From assembly GCA_009729775.1 (NCBI GenBank), contig GCA_009729775.1_4081.1: a DNA stretch of 64,000 bases. One strand, given 5' to 3'. The notes beneath the pieces were generated by a model that saw only the letters and a program-made list of their open reading frames with translations, was not told the DNA's origin and searched no databases. Shown one piece after another: positions 34,852 through 42,291 of this stretch. The position numbers and the translations under genes were made by a program. Source of the stretch: Escherichia coli (GTDB lineage: Bacteria > Pseudomonadota > Gammaproteobacteria > Enterobacterales > Enterobacteriaceae). Each line of letters starts with the position of its first letter. Position 1 is the stretch's first letter.

Positions 34852-35781
34852 TTATACAGCCATCGGTGCTTTAATTGTTGGCATTGGATTGTAATTCACT
34901 AATTTGAAAGAATCCATTGTGAAATCTTCAATATTAGTAATTGTAGGATCAAGCCATAATTCAGGTAATTCACGAGGTTTTCTCTGTAGTTGTTCTTTTA
35001 CTTGTTCAACGTGGTTTTTATAAATGTGGCAATCACCACCATTCCAAATAAATTCTCCAACATCTAAACCAGTAATTTGTGCAATCATATGAGTTAGTAG
35101 TGAATAACTACTGATATTAAATGGAACTCCCAAAAATAGATCAGCGGATCTTTGATGTAGAATGCAGCTTAGTTTCCCTTGTACTACACAAAATTGTACA
35201 AAGCTATGACAAGGTGGCAACGTCATATCATCAAGCTCACCAACGTTCCATGCACTTAGAATATGGCGACGACCATATGGATCGGACTTTATACCATTGA
35301 TTAGTTCCTGTAATTGGTCAGTTGTACGTTTCATAACAACACCATGTGAACCAGTATAATCGATAACTTTGTATCCTTTATCTTTTAATTCTTGAATTTC
35401 TTCAGTACTGGAACTAAATTTATAATCTTCCCATTCACGCCATTGCTTACCATACACTGGACCTAACTCACCATCAGTATAACCAAGAGCAACGCCTTGA
35501 TTTAGGTAATTATCTGTCCAAATAGTTTTCTTTTCTGTATCACGAGTTCCATGCAAAATTTCACAAAGGCGACGCTCATCATGGGAACCTTCAATAAACC
35601 ATAGTAATTCTGAAGTCATTGCTTTCCAAGCTAGACGTTTTGTCGTCACTGCTGGGAAACCATCTTTAAGGTCAAAACGCATTTGTTGACCGATAAGTTT
35701 GATTGTTCCAACACCAGTACGGTCAACGCTTTCTACGCCTTCATCTAGAATTTTTTGATATAGTTCTTGTAGTTGTTTCAT
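34852..35781 (-). CDS. thyA: thymidylate synthase (ThyA family, T4 td-like with insertions)
   Basis: Aligns by eye along its whole length with E. coli ThyA: catalytic PCH, conserved HQRSADLFLGVPFNISSY with the uracil-specifying Asn retained, C-terminal IKAPMAV. Confidence 0.9.
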   Translation of the reverse strand: MKQLQELYQKILDEGVESVDRTGVGTIKLIGQQMRFDLKDGFPAVTTKRLAWKAMTSELLWFIEGSHDERRLCEILHGTRDTEKKTIWTDNYLNQGVALGYTDGELGPVYGKQWREWEDYKFSSSTEEIQELKDKGYKVIDYTGSHGVVMKRTTDQLQELINGIKSDPYGRRHILSAWNVGELDDMTLPPCHSFVQFCVVQGKLSCILHQRSADLFLGVPFNISSYSLLTHMIAQITGLDVGEFIWNGGDCHIYKNHVEQVKEQLQRKPRELPELWLDPTITNIEDFTMDSFKLVNYNPMPTIKAPMAV

Positions 35782-36377: not shown

Positions 36378-37034
36378 TTATTTTGCTTTACGTTCTGCAA
36401 ATAGTTGTTTTACTTTCTCAATAGCTTTAGTCTGTGAAATACCTTCTGGAATTTCTAGATAAATTGTTTTACTATCTTTCGGTTGTTCAACAACTTGTGT
36501 TTGCGGACGCAAGCTTGGCTCTAAATTGTATGCACGTTCATAATGTTCTTTAGCCAGTTTTTCATATTTTTGTGCATCAGTGAGAAGTTGTTCTACAATA
36601 GTAGCTTCTTCTACTTTAGTGTCTGCTTCTTGTGGATTGAATGGGTTAAAGTCTTTTACTTTACCATCTTCTTGTACTTTCGCTTGATTTTCATCTAATG
36701 CTTTGTTTAGAACATCAAGAGAAATTTTATTATTACCACCAGTGTGCATATCAATATCACAAGTACGAACGCGACGTAGATGCTGCATGTTGTGTAGAAC
36801 ATCTAGCATTTTGCGTCCATCGAGATAACCAATTTTATGCATTACTTCCCACAAATCAATATTAGATTGACCATGACCCATAACAATATCAGTTACTGCG
36901 TGTACATATGCTTCTGGTAGTGAATCACGATAAACGATAAGGCAGTGTTCAGGATCATCTGGTAGTGAACGCCAAACAACAAAAACACGAGAACCTGTAT
37001 TACGCATTACACCAACATGACGAATAGCTGCCAT
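36378..37034 (-). CDS. hypothetical protein
   Basis: 218 aa, AAAGGAGA SD, 3 nt from the next gene. Confidence 0.65.
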   Translation of the reverse strand: MAAIRHVGVMRNTGSRVFVVWRSLPDDPEHCLIVYRDSLPEAYVHAVTDIVMGHGQSNIDLWEVMHKIGYLDGRKMLDVLHNMQHLRRVRTCDIDMHTGGNNKISLDVLNKALDENQAKVQEDGKVKDFNPFNPQEADTKVEEATIVEQLLTDAQKYEKLAKEHYERAYNLEPSLRPQTQVVEQPKDSKTIYLEIPEGISQTKAIEKVKQLFAERKAK

Positions 37035-37297: not shown

Positions 37298-37391
37298 GTA
37301 TATTGGTACATTAACTATTATATCATATTTTTATAAGTTGTCCCACTTATAAAAGAAGAGAACGGAAAATTCCGTTCTCATTATTTAGTAC

Positions 37392-38816
37392 TTAACTACG
37401 TTGACGCTTTTTATCAGCTTCATATTCGTAGTGTACAGTCTCACCAAATGGTGCAACTTTATTTGGGTTACTGTGAATCACGAACAGTGTTTTACAGTAG
37501 TTTGGATCACCCCATGACTGCCACGGTTCACCATCAGTAAACATTACAAGCTGTTTAGGCTTGTAGTTGTCGTTCTTCATATGAACCCATACTGCTTCAA
37601 AGTCAGTACCACCACCACCTTTTACTGGATATTCCAGAATCTTACGTTCTTCGCCAGTTTTGTAATCCTTTACAGTATAAACTTCAGTATCAAAAGTCAT
37701 GATACGAATCTTAAACTGTTTGAATTGTTTAGTGATGCCAAGAACTTCACTAATGAAATCACGAAGCATATCTTCAGAAATAGACCCAGAAGCATCTAGT
37801 GCAATCGCAATATCAATATCATCATCTGGTTTCATCCCTGGGTAAATTGGATTACCATAGAATGAACCATTAGAACCAAAACCTGCACCCCAAGAACGAC
37901 GATTAGGATTTTGATATGTTGCATCAGACTTCAACCAACTACGAAGTGTACGTTGAAGTTTTGAACGCCAGTCAATCTTTGGTTCTTTAAAGTTGTTAAT
38001 CATACGAGCGATTTCTGCTGGTGTACCACCTGCACGAGCAGCATTCATCATTGCTGTTTTGAAATCATCCATGTAATCACGTTTTTGCTGTTCACTTGAA
38101 CCACCCTCTTGACCTTCTTGTGGAACGTCATGCTGGTCAATGGTAGTACCTTTTGGTTTACCCTTACCATCTTTAATATCGCCAAAAGTACCGCGATTTT
38201 TACCTTCACCTTCGCCACCACCACTTTGTGGTTGACCTTCACCTTCACCATCTTCTTTTTGTTCTTCTTCTTCAAGAAGAATGTAAATCTCTTCTGCGGT
38301 CATACCTTCATATTTTTTATCATACAACCATGAACTTTGGATTTTTCCAATTTTCTCACGAACGATGATTTGGTTAATGGCATAATCCGCTGCACGGTTA
38401 TAACGTTGTGGATCACGCATACCACGACGAAGGAAGTGATCGTAAGCACAGTGTAGAATTTCATGACAAATTACAGCAATAAGGTTTTCATCAGTCAAAC
38501 CTTCAGTCATTTCTTTTAATTGTTCGTCTGTAACTTCAGGATGCTTTTCACGAATAGCTTCTTCATATTCTTTCTTTTTAGATGGGTCTTGAATACCCAT
38601 TACAAATTCTACGTTGTAGAATAGATGTTTACCATCAACTGCTAGAGTACGACACCATGTATTATTAGCAACTGGACGTAAACGTGAAGCGAGTACACCA
38701 AAGAATGGTGCAGTTAACATCAAAGATGTACGAGCCAGAACCAGACGATCTTGACATTCTTTCTGGAGTGCCGGAGATACTTCATTGAATCTGGAAGTAG
38801 ATTTGTTATCTGACAT
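37392..38816 (-). CDS. vWA-domain protein with N-terminal HExxH metallopeptidase-like domain (MoxR-partner type)
   Basis: HEILHCAYDH (HExxH) in the N-terminal half; C-terminal vWA with MIDAS DASGS (IAIALDASGSISE) and a downstream FTDGEP. Confidence 0.8.
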   Translation of the reverse strand: MSDNKSTSRFNEVSPALQKECQDRLVLARTSLMLTAPFFGVLASRLRPVANNTWCRTLAVDGKHLFYNVEFVMGIQDPSKKKEYEEAIREKHPEVTDEQLKEMTEGLTDENLIAVICHEILHCAYDHFLRRGMRDPQRYNRAADYAINQIIVREKIGKIQSSWLYDKKYEGMTAEEIYILLEEEEQKEDGEGEGQPQSGGGEGEGKNRGTFGDIKDGKGKPKGTTIDQHDVPQEGQEGGSSEQQKRDYMDDFKTAMMNAARAGGTPAEIARMINNFKEPKIDWRSKLQRTLRSWLKSDATYQNPNRRSWGAGFGSNGSFYGNPIYPGMKPDDDIDIAIALDASGSISEDMLRDFISEVLGITKQFKQFKIRIMTFDTEVYTVKDYKTGEERKILEYPVKGGGGTDFEAVWVHMKNDNYKPKQLVMFTDGEPWQSWGDPNYCKTLFVIHSNPNKVAPFGETVHYEYEADKKRQRS

Positions 38817-38837
38817 GTATATTTCCTCGTTTAGTTA

Positions 38838-38869
38838 AGATAAAAGAAGGATACCATTAGGCATCCTTC
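38838..38869 (-). terminator. hairpin/attenuator between the MoxR-like and vWA genes
   Basis: 10-bp stem with one mismatch, followed on the minus strand by CTTTTATCTT directly ahead of the vWA SD. Confidence 0.4.
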
Positions 38870-38890
38870 TTGTCAACAACTCTTTGTTAA

Positions 38891-40216
38891 TTAGCCAAGA
38901 GAGCGTGCTTTACGTACAAGTTCAGAGTACTTAGCGATGAAATCTTTAAACGCTGGTACATCTTTAATGGAAATCGCAACCTTATGAAGCGTGATGGTAC
39001 GAATTGCCAGTACTGCCAGTTCTGCTTGAGTTGCAGAGAAGTTATGGTCTAGGAAGGTGATGAAGTTGTTACACAGTTTACCCCATTCTTCCACTGGTAG
39101 ACGTTGTTCTTGCTTCTCATTGAACAGGTCGATAATTTTATAAACCAAGTTCAGAGTGATAAAGTAGTTCGCAGAAATATCCAGAGTTGCGTCGATTTCT
39201 TTGATTTCACCAGACAGAATAGACATAGTATCTGGTAGTTTAGCAACGTTCTCAACGTACTCAATGTATTCAGTTGCAACACCTTCACCAACACGACCAG
39301 CAATCATTGCACGGAACACTTCTTTATCAATTGTCTTAGTTTTCTTGAGATCTTCGTAGCGTGCTACTGCTTCCCATGAACGTGGAGAAGTACCACCGCT
39401 GTGAGAAGGATCTTGTGGACTAAGTGTGTTAAAGTACTTAGAACCAGTGTTGTTGATGAACGCAACAGTTGCTGGGTTCAAACGTTTTGCAATCGCATAA
39501 TCGTTAATCCAATCTTGATGGTAAGGAATCATCTCAATGTGAGTCATACGGTCACGCAGTGGTGTAGCAAGAGAGAAAGTTACACCGCCATCAGTTTCAC
39601 GGTTACCTGCTGCAAGAATCAGTGCAGTCTTAGGTAGCTTCATCTCACCAACACAACGGTCGAGGATTAGCTGATAAGACGCTGCCTGAACAATAGGCAT
39701 TGCAGAGTTAATTTCGTCAAACAGAATAACACCTTTCCAATCTTCGGACAATTTCAGAACTTTAGGTGCAGCCCATACTACCGCAGTTTCAGCTACATAA
39801 TCTTTTGCTTCGGCAAGCTCAGATTCTTTCAGAAGAGAACCGTCAGTTTTACGGAAAAGCTTCTCTGGTACTGGAATACCGCGAAGGTCACTTGGTTCGA
39901 TTTGAGACAAACGGAAATCGATAAAGTTAGTATCTTGGTCGATTAGTTTTGCTTCAAATGCAGCCAGTTCACGGCGTAGCTGATCAGCATTTTCAGGGTC
40001 AGCTTCGATTTGTTGTTTCATGAACTCGATTTTAGCTACGTTATCTTTACGCAGTGGGTAATTTTCATCAGCATATTGACGAGCGATAGCAGACTTACCG
40101 ATACCTGGGCTACCCCAAATCATCAGGCTATCTTGAATCATGTCAGCCAGTGCCATTGCTTCTTTAGCTTTCTTTGGAGTCAGTTTAACGTTCAGGATAT
40201 CGTTTTGAGTAGTCAT
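38891..40216 (-). CDS. MoxR-like AAA+ ATPase (AAA_5 / CobS-like)
   Basis: Walker A GSPGIGKS, Walker B ILFDEINSA, sensor region LILAAGNRETDGG; single AAA+ module plus C-terminal helical domain. Confidence 0.8.
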   Translation of the reverse strand: MTTQNDILNVKLTPKKAKEAMALADMIQDSLMIWGSPGIGKSAIARQYADENYPLRKDNVAKIEFMKQQIEADPENADQLRRELAAFEAKLIDQDTNFIDFRLSQIEPSDLRGIPVPEKLFRKTDGSLLKESELAEAKDYVAETAVVWAAPKVLKLSEDWKGVILFDEINSAMPIVQAASYQLILDRCVGEMKLPKTALILAAGNRETDGGVTFSLATPLRDRMTHIEMIPYHQDWINDYAIAKRLNPATVAFINNTGSKYFNTLSPQDPSHSGGTSPRSWEAVARYEDLKKTKTIDKEVFRAMIAGRVGEGVATEYIEYVENVAKLPDTMSILSGEIKEIDATLDISANYFITLNLVYKIIDLFNEKQEQRLPVEEWGKLCNNFITFLDHNFSATQAELAVLAIRTITLHKVAISIKDVPAFKDFIAKYSELVRKARSLG

Positions 40217-40385
40217 GTATATATTTCCTTTTGTTGGATAAAATCGTTTAAGTTTCTATTATAGCCAATCCGTGGGCAAAAGTAAAGGAACTGTGTTAAA
40301 ATAATTTAACTTATCAGTTCCTTTGTTACTTCATGAATCATCCGTGTGTTTAAAAGGTAAATCTCTTTGCTGTCTTGATGTGAAC

Positions 40386-40413
40386 ATTATATCACATCGT
40401 TTCAACTTGTCAA
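40386..40413 (-). promoter_or_regulatory. sigma70-like promoter P1 (TTGACA-N16-TGaTATAAT)
   Basis: Consensus -35 and extended -10 when read on the minus strand; about 170 nt upstream of the MoxR-like start. Confidence 0.55.
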
Positions 40414-40478
40414 TCACTTTTTTTCTTTTTTTTCAAACTCACATCTTGTGTCGCTTGAAAACTTTATGTCTGATGCTT

Positions 40479-40506
40479 ATTGTATCACATCATTCTATCT
40501 TGTCAA
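40479..40506 (-). promoter_or_regulatory. sigma70-like promoter P2 (TTGACA-N16-TGaTACAAT)
   Basis: Second copy of the same promoter architecture, about 90 bp upstream of P1. Confidence 0.5.
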
Positions 40507-40529
40507 CATTTATTTTTAATTCATTTTTC

Positions 40530-40910
40530 TTACATATGAATAGAAAATAACTGTTTAAAATCATCACAACACAATGTTAATTCAGTTATTATCATTGCAT
40601 CTGTCAGATATATGTACTGACCTTCAACATAATAAGGTGAAGTACATATTCTGTCAAGTGATGTAAACATTATAGAACTTTTAAATTCTCTTTGCAAGGG
40701 GATTTTTGTAAATTCATAAAGATTATTTTCTTTACAAATTCCATACCCAAACTTGCTAAGACGTAAACCACCGCCAGTTCTGAAATTTTCAAAAATTGAC
40801 ATCAGAAGCATACGGTCTGTTATTTCTGAATCTGATTCATGTACTTCCCTAACTTTGGAAAGTACATTATTTTGATATTCAGTACTGTTATGTGATGGTT
40901 CTGGAAACAT
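40530..40910 (-). CDS. hypothetical protein
   Basis: 126 aa ORF, 3 nt from the upstream gene. Confidence 0.6.
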   Translation of the reverse strand: MFPEPSHNSTEYQNNVLSKVREVHESDSEITDRMLLMSIFENFRTGGGLRLSKFGYGICKENNLYEFTKIPLQREFKSSIMFTSLDRICTSPYYVEGQYIYLTDAMIITELTLCCDDFKQLFSIHM

Positions 40911-40913
40911 ATA

Positions 40914-41309
40914 TTAGTCTCCAACAAAACCTTGACGTGCAGCATAAGATGGTGCACCAGGTTCATTATAGTGTTGTACACCTTCTTTGTCAATTGTTGG
41001 TCCCATACCTTCAGTACCAAAACAACCTGCAATGGCTTCCAACACTTCGTCATCAGCAACTTCAGTACTTTCATCATTATATCGAATATCAGACAAAATG
41101 TCACAGGCTTTTTGTAGTTTATCTACAATTTCTTTTTGGTCTTCACCAGATTTAATCTTATCAACAATGTTAATAAGACATTTGGTAATATCCTTAAGAA
41201 CATCAACTGCTACAACATCGGATTCAACTTCAACTGAAAAACTTTCGTCTTCATCTCTTCCGGTAATTTCGTCTAACGCTTCAACTAGTTCACGATAATT
41301 ATATTGCAT
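40914..41309 (-). CDS. acidic hypothetical protein
   Basis: 131 aa, Asp/Glu-rich. Confidence 0.6.
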   Translation of the reverse strand: MQYNYRELVEALDEITGRDEDESFSVEVESDVVAVDVLKDITKCLINIVDKIKSGEDQKEIVDKLQKACDILSDIRYNDESTEVADDEVLEAIAGCFGTEGMGPTIDKEGVQHYNEPGAPSYAARQGFVGD

Positions 41310-41310
41310 A

Positions 41311-42291
41311 TTATTTGTCTCCTAAAAATTTCTTGTATTTTTCTTGGAGACTTTCAAAAATATCTTCTACTTCTTCATCAGAATCATCTTCCAAGTCAAT
41401 GTTACCTTCAGGTGAATCATCTTCTTCACTTTCATTAACATTTAGTGGGTTATCTCCTAATGCAGTGCCTGGGAATTTTGGTTCAAATTTATGAACACGA
41501 TTTTCGTTCCCTTCATTATCATAATACTCAGGTTCTGGACGATTGTCAAGATCTTCATCTACAACACGTCTCCAATAAAACTGATTGCCTTTTGCAATTA
41601 CAACAAAATGGTCACCTTCAACACCATTAGTCTTTAGTTGACCATCACGAACTGCATCAGCTTCTGTTCCATATGGACCGTAATCAGTACTGTTAGATGG
41701 TTCTTCATCTTCAGAGATACTTAGATCTGGTAGAAATTGGGTATCTTTCATTTCTTTATCGGTGGCAGGATTACCCTCTACGGAAAAATCTTCGTCTTCT
41801 TCTTCGTTAATACCAGCAAGGGATAGCATACGACTAAAATCGAATTCTTCTTCAATAATTTCTTCTTCTTCCTCATCGTCTTCTTCAACTGATTCTAGTT
41901 GAGGTTGACCACTAAGGTCAAGAGAAAAATCTTCTTCACCTTCTACACCTGGTTCTGAAAATTCAGCATCCATACTAACTTCATCTGAGTCAGCACCAAA
42001 ATCACCAACATCAGCGGAAAGATCATCAACTGCCGCTGCTAGTGGGTCTTCAACTGAAGTTTCAATTCCACCAATTTCTTCTTCAGCACCAATAGAATCT
42101 AGATCTAGTGGAGCAATAGGTGGAAGAGATGGAGTCATAGACCCCATTGATGGTACTGGAGCAGCAACAACTGGGTCTTGACGTTCAGCTTGACCAGCAA
42201 GTGCTAACATACGTGATAGTGTTTCCAAATCATCAGATTCTAAACCTGCGATATCGATTTTAACTTGTGCTTCATTAATTTTTTTAGCCAT
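41311..42291 (-). CDS. hyper-acidic protein with Glu/Asp runs
   Basis: 326 aa with EEDDEEEEEIIEEE and many D/E clusters; duplicated SRML(A/S)LAG motif. Confidence 0.7.
   Translation of the reverse strand: MAKKINEAQVKIDIAGLESDDLETLSRMLALAGQAERQDPVVAAPVPSMGSMTPSLPPIAPLDLDSIGAEEEIGGIETSVEDPLAAAVDDLSADVGDFGADSDEVSMDAEFSEPGVEGEEDFSLDLSGQPQLESVEEDDEEEEEIIEEEFDFSRMLSLAGINEEEDEDFSVEGNPATDKEMKDTQFLPDLSISEDEEPSNSTDYGPYGTEADAVRDGQLKTNGVEGDHFVVIAKGNQFYWRRVVDEDLDNRPEPEYYDNEGNENRVHKFEPKFPGTALGDNPLNVNESEEDDSPEGNIDLEDDSDEEVEDIFESLQEKYKKFLGDK

Follow-up and report, generated by a model that had tools for sequence, protein, structure and literature searches.

MoxR-class AAA+ ATPases that act with a von Willebrand factor A (vWA) protein have a mechanism that can be described by analogy to NorQ/NorD, in which a 6:1 complex places a 'finger' of the vWA protein in the ATPase pore and ATP hydrolysis remodels a linker (PMC9976466, PMC13036017). 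In group 2.2 jumbo phages, a MoxR-vWA pair with an N-terminal metallopeptidase domain was reported by Iyer et al. (2021; Viruses 13:63, PMC7824862), who proposed a role in assembling virions, together with peptidolytic processing, on the analogy of the tail chaperone pair p618/p892 from Acidianus two-tailed virus (ATV). Two genes of phage N4, gp24 and gp25, are also among the 14 core genes that a 2014 comparison found in all of its 25 N4-like phages (PMC4193335), and their function is given as 'unknown' (PMC4193335, PMC2784036). Here we analyse a corresponding pair of genes in a 64,000-nucleotide stretch of DNA (the window) from contig GCA_009729775.1_4081.1 of the Escherichia coli assembly GCA_009729775.1, whose source is a jumbo coliphage of the 121Q type (genus Asteriusvirus).

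Our favoured reading, to which we give slightly less than an even chance, is that both genes belong to a single transcription unit and together specify a remodelling protease of two components, powered by ATP and orthologous to N4 gp24/gp25. The two-gene cassette proposed in the original prediction was recovered exactly, with both open reading frames on the minus strand, good Shine-Dalgarno sequences on each and a gap of 74 bp between them. This feature is real and not a product of chance, because thousands of homologues carry its invariant motifs. The 2.8-kb region is 99.5% identical in slurp01 and 99.2-99.4% identical in G17, 121Q, phAPEC6 and PBECO4.

It is important to note that the pair has already been published and annotated, such that the observation is correct and not new. 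GenBank lists the two products as 'MoxR ATPase' and 'N4 gp25-like protein' in the phAPEC6 record and as Gp24 and Gp25 in the RaK2 record. What is added here is the breadth of the vWA-zincin family, its linkage to the ATPase, the invariance of key residues and the correction of two misleading labels (HNH and T4 gp25). The original prediction also held that such pairs are functionally uncharacterised in phages, which agrees with the entry for the N4 genes and with our literature search on DUF2201, the domain family of the second protein. That search returned no study of function and none on phage, and the term occurred in no title or abstract. Papers on RaK2, CBB and MIJ3 make no mention of the pair.

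By its motifs and predicted structure, the product of the first gene is an AAA+ protein with intact catalytic sites that belongs to the MoxR/dynein-midasin (helix-2-insert) class. Walker A (GSPGIGKS, 40091-40114) and Walker B (LFDE, 39713-39724) can be read from the sequence, and both are intact, as are sensor-1, the arginine finger and sensor-2. Across 68 aligned ATPase sequences, there is no variation at G35, G38, K41, S42, E168, N205 (sensor-1), R223 or R279, a set that includes the sensor-2 arginine of an SPRSW motif, and at least 90% of the sequences retain D167. The AlphaFold2 model (predicted local distance difference test, pLDDT, 88.3) carries two features typical of the MoxR/dynein/midasin clade, a beta-hairpin inserted in helix 2 and a hairpin ahead of sensor-1. 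In the DSSP assignment, the first consists of strands 114-123 and 140-149, which fall between beta2 and Walker B, and the second is short (187-193) and precedes beta4. The C-terminal region of about 190 amino acids is helical.

Membership of the MoxR class is founded on transitive homology through relatives, on fold and on gene partnership, and not on the Pfam score of the protein itself. The generic AAA family is borderline (21.3 bits against a cutoff of 21.2), and both AAA_5 (15.6 against 22) and AAA_3 (16.7 against 27) fall below their gathering scores. Relatives at approximately 31-36% identity nevertheless pass AAA_5, and one also passes AAA_3 (locus L014, AAA_3 32.1 and AAA_5 30.4; locus L023, AAA_5 42.6). 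A match to phrog_1297, annotated 'ATPase', was obtained at 3e-107. Thus, of the earlier description as an AAA_5/MoxR-type ATPase, the MoxR class is upheld by relatives, fold and pairing, whereas the AAA_5 label is sub-threshold on the window sequence alone. The divergence is due mainly to a clade-specific helical insert of about 40 amino acids after the Walker A helix, which the model renders as helices 56-72 and 74-90. The distance from Walker A to the DxRL motif is 54-77 amino acids in the RaK2-like clade versus 15-20 in other relatives with both motifs measurable.

The second gene encodes a protein that, judged from its motifs and model, joins an HExxH zincin-family domain to a vWA domain with a complete metal-ion-dependent adhesion site (MIDAS) through a disordered, acidic, Gly-rich linker. 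This composition bears out the original prediction in its HExxH motif and its C-terminal vWA domain, which has the vWA (Rossmann-like) fold. Pfam matches DUF2201_N (PF13203, 'putative metallopeptidase') at 2.4e-35, with 122.9 bits against a cutoff of 23.2, and DUF2201 (PF09967, 'VWA-like') at 7e-21, both far above threshold; phrog_1314 is matched at 1.8e-127. The metallopeptidase-like motif HEILHCAYDH spans 38436-38465 (HExxH, 38451-38465), and the MIDAS motif DASGS lies at 37782-37796. Nine residues (H118, E119, H122, D144, D341, S343, S345, T404 and D428) are invariant in 67 partner sequences that are 42-88% identical, and HExxH is kept in N4-like, rV5-like, MIJ3 and bacterial homologues.

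The AlphaFold2 model of this partner (pLDDT 79.5) begins with three short strands, an HExxH helix at 109-128 and a further, conserved helix at 136-153. After the linker (16 Gly, 8 Glu, 6 Gln, 6 Lys and 5 Asp in 56 residues), the middle region is helical and the vWA domain is compact. In blocks of ten residues, mean pLDDT along the HExxH helix is 97 for 111-120 and 77 for 121-130. A zincin fold is supported by family membership, by motif invariance and by a local profile match to M48. In this match, hhalign gave a probability of 85% over 25 columns for a bona fide M48 active-site helix, with HEIAHVTQQH set against HEILHCAYDH. Pfam also places sub-threshold M48 and PhageMetallopep matches on the helix, and a Brucella member of the family passes the M48 threshold, locally. 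Searches of PDB by sequence or profile with either protein gave only marginal matches, including, for the partner, a weak one to MJ1213 (chain 4qhf), which we take to be selecase, a minimal gluzincin. An NCBIfam search of the pair yielded nothing useful.

Members of the RaK2-like clade have a helical-hairpin insert in both partners, and the second of these occupies about 32 amino acids just before the HExxH helix (approximately 38496-38594, minus strand). Both inserts are absent from every non-jumbo locus in which both distances could be measured. The paired inserts could represent a co-evolved contact surface; phylogenetically, they are a single event.

Several labels that circulate for the zincin-vWA protein ('HNH endonuclease', 'T4 gp25-like' and 'DNA repair ATPase') are widespread and need correcting. 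No HNH Pfam match was found in the 474-residue protein, and the HNH label, which is also carried by PHROG 1314, probably stems from a Roseovarius phage 'putative HNH endonuclease' cited in the RaK2 record together with adjacent HNH genes. Homing HNH genes do lie between the ATPase and zincin-vWA genes in two phages that are unrelated, G7C (gp24.1; locus L002, 3967-4443) and MIJ3 (MIJ3_00181; locus L043, 2440-3936). The note in the 121Q record that likens the protein to the T4 gp25 baseplate wedge found no counterpart in any gp25/GPW lysozyme-like domain match, and this note appears to confuse N4 gp25 with T4 gp25.

The family is broadly distributed. By tblastn, the zincin-vWA protein is present in 686 phage records, which include RaK2-like jumbo phages, rV5-like Vequintavirinae, N4-like Schitoviridae, Pseudomonas phage MIJ3 and Bacillus phage G, and an exhaustive profile search recovered 18,903 cluster representatives at E <= 1e-10. 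Linkage to the ATPase was scanned in prokaryotes with one genome per species, giving 38 loci, 35 of them with enough upstream DNA to be informative. All 35 of these bacterial or metagenome-assembled genome (MAG) loci have an ATPase homologue upstream on the same strand. Among phages, MIJ3 shows the same arrangement, and G7C pairs a gp24 sharing 30% identity with the window ATPase (E 8e-25) with a gp25 that has the same DUF2201_N and DUF2201 domains as well as HExxH and DxSGS. In the rV5-like phage isim, the ATPase homologue is 3.6 kb from the zincin-vWA gene and on the opposite strand. The 'anti-sigma factor' that adjoins the zincin-vWA gene in rV5-like phages (isim; locus L003, 3921-4961) was considered as the ATPase and showed no similarity to it. 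Some of the scanned prokaryote loci resemble phage contigs and share two further small genes with the window. The Brucella pecoris locus, with a DNA ligase and a beta-clamp among unannotated open reading frames, can be read as prophage-like, and a Chromatiaceae chromosome locus, with M48-TPR, cytochrome and SoxA genes nearby, is plainly cellular.

Table. Positions of the gene pair, its predicted domains and signals, and the flanking small genes in the window (aa, amino acids).
Feature	Position	Strand	Remarks
MoxR-class AAA+ ATPase, 441 aa	38891-40216	minus	121Q gp563; phAPEC6 gp265c; N4 gp24 orthologue
Clade-specific helical-hairpin insert, ~40 aa	39932-40060	minus	after Walker A helix, ~aa 53-95
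Zincin-vWA protein, 474 aa	37392-38816	minus	121Q gp564; phAPEC6 gp264c; N4 gp25 orthologue
N-terminal zincin-like domain, ~aa 10-190	38247-38789	minus	candidate third ligands H127, D144 or E175/E176
Disordered Gly/Glu-rich linker, ~aa 185-240	38097-38264	minus	pLDDT <50 at residues 193-219
C-terminal vWA domain	37422-37817	minus	complete MIDAS D341-x-S343-x-S345, T404, D428
Upstream non-coding region, 313 bp	40217-40529	minus	three tandem sigma70-like promoters (predicted)
P1	40479-40506	minus	sigma70-like, predicted
P2	40386-40413	minus	perfect TTGACA-16-TATAAT with extended TG, predicted
P3	40258-40286	minus	sigma70-like, predicted
Intergenic terminator-like hairpin with T-rich tail	38844-38871	minus	12-bp stem
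Intrinsic terminator-like hairpin closing the two-gene unit	37358-37379	minus	scores on the plus strand too
126-aa protein	40530-40910	minus	121Q gp562; phrog_15638; possible accessory gene
218-aa protein	36378-37034	minus	121Q gp566; phrog_15894; possible accessory gene

The boundaries of the proposed transcription unit are listed in the Table. Predicted promoters P1 and P2 have in common a 24-nt near-repeat, TTGACAAGnTnGAAnGATGTGATA, of which the window holds no other copy. Further strong promoter-like sites occur within the upstream coding sequence, including a perfect one at 40965-40993. The intergenic hairpin has a predicted RNA folding free energy of -21.8 kcal/mol (z = -5.2), a stability reached by none of 200 shuffled sequences, and it overlaps a weak promoter-like site (TTGACA-17-TATCCT). 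It is conserved across Asteriusvirus and persists in RaK2 (genus Alcyoneusvirus), where one compensatory change from G-C to U-A and several G-U wobbles leave the stem intact. Because it is conserved as far as RaK2 with stem-preserving changes, we conclude that the hairpin is a real, selected structure of the terminator type. The attenuator hairpin of the original prediction is therefore sound as a structure, and its attenuating role is conjecture.

A search for a conserved third gene beside the pair returned only the two small proteins listed in the Table, each in a subset of loci. Homologues of the 218-residue protein, which gave no match in a Pfam scan, come after the pair in seven MAG contigs, where their strand is that of the pair, whereas in MIJ3 it is the opposite one, and homologues of the 126-residue protein are upstream of the ATPase gene in five MAG contigs. 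Given that homologues flank the pair in 5-8 metagenomic or phage loci, including MIJ3, the phrog_15894 and phrog_15638 proteins may be accessory components. The two genes of the pair have GC contents of 42% and 39%, compared with 30-38% for their neighbours and a window average of 35%. Approximately 1.1 kb upstream of the ATPase gene, an open reading frame (41311-42291, minus strand) encodes an extremely acidic, low-complexity protein of 326 amino acids that is annotated as a virion structural protein. Acidic residues are ligands of MIDAS sites, although any link to this product is hypothetical.

If the pair operates in the manner of NorQ/NorD and CbbQ/CbbO, the following mechanism can be envisaged. 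A hexamer of the ATPase would bind one copy of the vWA protein, and the MIDAS metal would capture the target protein by one of its acidic residues. The linker and the target would then be pulled or twisted as ATP is hydrolysed, and the fused zincin domain might cleave the segment that is newly exposed. The intergenic hairpin may keep expression of the vWA protein below that of the ATPase, as would suit a 6:1 complex. Within this general mechanism, our leading guess, somewhat less secure than the mechanism as a whole and in line with the proposal of Iyer et al. drawn from the ATV pair, is that the target is a phage structural or assembly protein.

A role in the virion is favoured by several observations. 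The pair adjoins genes annotated as virion structural proteins, and a 'second structural module' adjoins the gp24/gp25 homologues of roseophages (PMC4193335). Moreover, the virion mass spectrometry of phAPEC6 lists the ATPase (gp265c) with six peptides and 19% coverage, and the zincin-vWA protein was not detected in the same list. ATV follows the same pattern, with the MoxR ATPase a virion component and the vWA partner not detected. The phAPEC6 list also includes thymidylate synthase (three peptides) and the gp566 homologue (one peptide). The presence of ThyA (34852-35781 in the window) and gp566 might reflect contamination or a large non-virion complex that co-sediments.

There are also arguments against a virion-processing protease. 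The first set concerns the peptidase. Both fold searches with the partner returned vWA matches only, the zincin part being masked by these dominant matches, the third zinc ligand is still one of several candidates, and our search of the DUF2201 literature found no experimental report of proteolytic activity for the family. It is conceivable that the pair is purely a chaperone, in which the HExxH domain is structural or regulatory (for example, auto-inhibitory or autoprocessing) and does not cut other proteins. Most peptidase domains fused to vWA components in VMAP-type systems are catalytically inactive, and the pair in ATV functions with no peptidase domain. However, the invariance of H118, E119 and H122 across the 67 partner sequences is what would be expected of an active site, and the retention of HExxH in N4-like, rV5-like, MIJ3 and bacterial members also argues against this view, which we regard as quite improbable.

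The second set concerns the virion. Absence of the zincin-vWA protein from the phAPEC6 list is itself unfavourable, and the ATPase in that list may be a contaminant because thymidylate synthase was found there as well. The upstream promoters fit the sigma70 consensus, as is typical of early or middle genes, and N4 gp24/gp25 are reported as middle transcripts from a part of the genome that holds nucleotide-metabolism genes (PMC4193335). Genes of nucleotide metabolism recur near the pair. Furthermore, the module is not intrinsically related to virions, because homologous pairs also occur in the plainly cellular context of Chromatiaceae and in what we read as a prophage-like region of Brucella pecoris. 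Finally, the ATPase and partner genes overlap and have no hairpin in many bacterial loci; because of this, attenuation of the second gene would at best be specific to this phage lineage.

The early or middle timing suggested by these promoters and by the N4 transcripts would suit a host-directed protease of takeover or counter-defence, in which the MIDAS captures a host protein or complex during the early to middle part of infection, to be cleaved and thereby inactivated by the ATPase-zincin pair. Conflict systems have been described in which MoxR-vWA pairs are combined with effector domains, in rare cases metallopeptidases, and some database names for the family derive from Synechocystis sll7028/sll7029. 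These two genes lie on the CRISPR-rich plasmid pSYSA. In contrast, an effector aimed at the host should vary with the host, whereas this pair is under strict conservation and keeps its invariant sites in phages whose hosts are very different, and it belongs to the core genes of N4-like phages. Likewise, PADLOC gave no matches, and no third component of the VMAP/iSTAND type was found nearby. On balance, we consider a host target of this kind unlikely.

The recurrence of nucleotide-metabolism genes raises a further alternative, namely that the pair acts as a chaperone in the maturation of a phage complex for replication or nucleotide metabolism and possibly inserts a metal cofactor, as do NorQD, CoxDE and CobST. 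Metal insertion or enzyme activation is the role of most MoxR-vWA pairs that have been characterised. In addition, ThyA and a DprA-like protein are encoded nearby in the window, dCTP deaminase and ThyX in G7C, and DNA ligase and beta-clamp in Brucella pecoris, and ThyA was detected alongside the ATPase in the phAPEC6 preparation. Yet the known metal-insertion pairs have no peptidase domain, and neither rV5-like phages nor the loci of sulfur oxidisers conserve this neighbourhood. ThyA is not known to have a metal cofactor. A chelatase of the CobS/CobT or BchI/BchD type was also considered and set aside, given that Pfam produced no CobS, CobT or CbbQ_C signal at E <= 1 and Mg-chelatase domains were not recovered. 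We therefore judge a maturation chaperone to be very improbable.

Returning to the remodelling protease, we can state a broader version of this proposal, which we consider doubtful in its full extent. The pair might represent a new class of split ATP-dependent protease, in which a MoxR hexamer applies force to a substrate captured by the MIDAS and a zincin fused to the adaptor makes the cut. This enzyme would perform an essential middle-phase function in N4-, rV5-, RaK2- and PA5oct-like phages and in some bacteria, with a specific virion or host-complex target. The pair is found again in bacteria and in several large virulent phages that are unrelated to one another, and finding its target would fill a gap in the core biology of phages. 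It could also add a MoxR-coupled protease to the company of FtsH, Lon and Clp.

Comparison with known systems places the window pair among several partial counterparts. Similarity to M48 peptidases and minimal gluzincins (BepA-like M48; MJ1213, 4qhf) is local to the active-site helix and does not extend beyond it. The vWA partners in NorQ/NorD and CbbQ/CbbO have no peptidase domain, and these systems insert metal into, or release inhibitors from, defined enzymes. The window ATPase differs further in its C-terminal extension, which is helical and about 190 amino acids long, and in having no CbbQ_C domain. The MoxR-vWA ternary conflict systems (VMAP, iSTAND, FtsH and beta-propeller; Kaur et al. 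2020) include a third component, whereas no conserved one stands beside the window pair. Another viral MoxR-vWA pair is that of ATV (p618, MoxR; p892, vWA), although this archaeal virus pair has no zincin domain and is likened to ours by architecture and not by sequence.

The jumbo-phage pair of Iyer et al. has the same architecture and comes from the same kind of phage as the window, and the accessions cited for it (ASV44729.1 and ASV44728.2) may belong to a 121Q-like phage. These authors did not link the pair to N4 gp24/gp25, to rV5-like phages or to cellular homologues. N4 gp24/gp25 themselves are the orthologous pair, in the same gene order as in the window. Relative to N4-like phages, each partner of the jumbo-phage pair has gained helical inserts and the Gly/Glu linker is longer, and the unit in the window carries sigma70-like promoters and an intergenic hairpin, whereas G7C has a homing HNH gene between the two genes.

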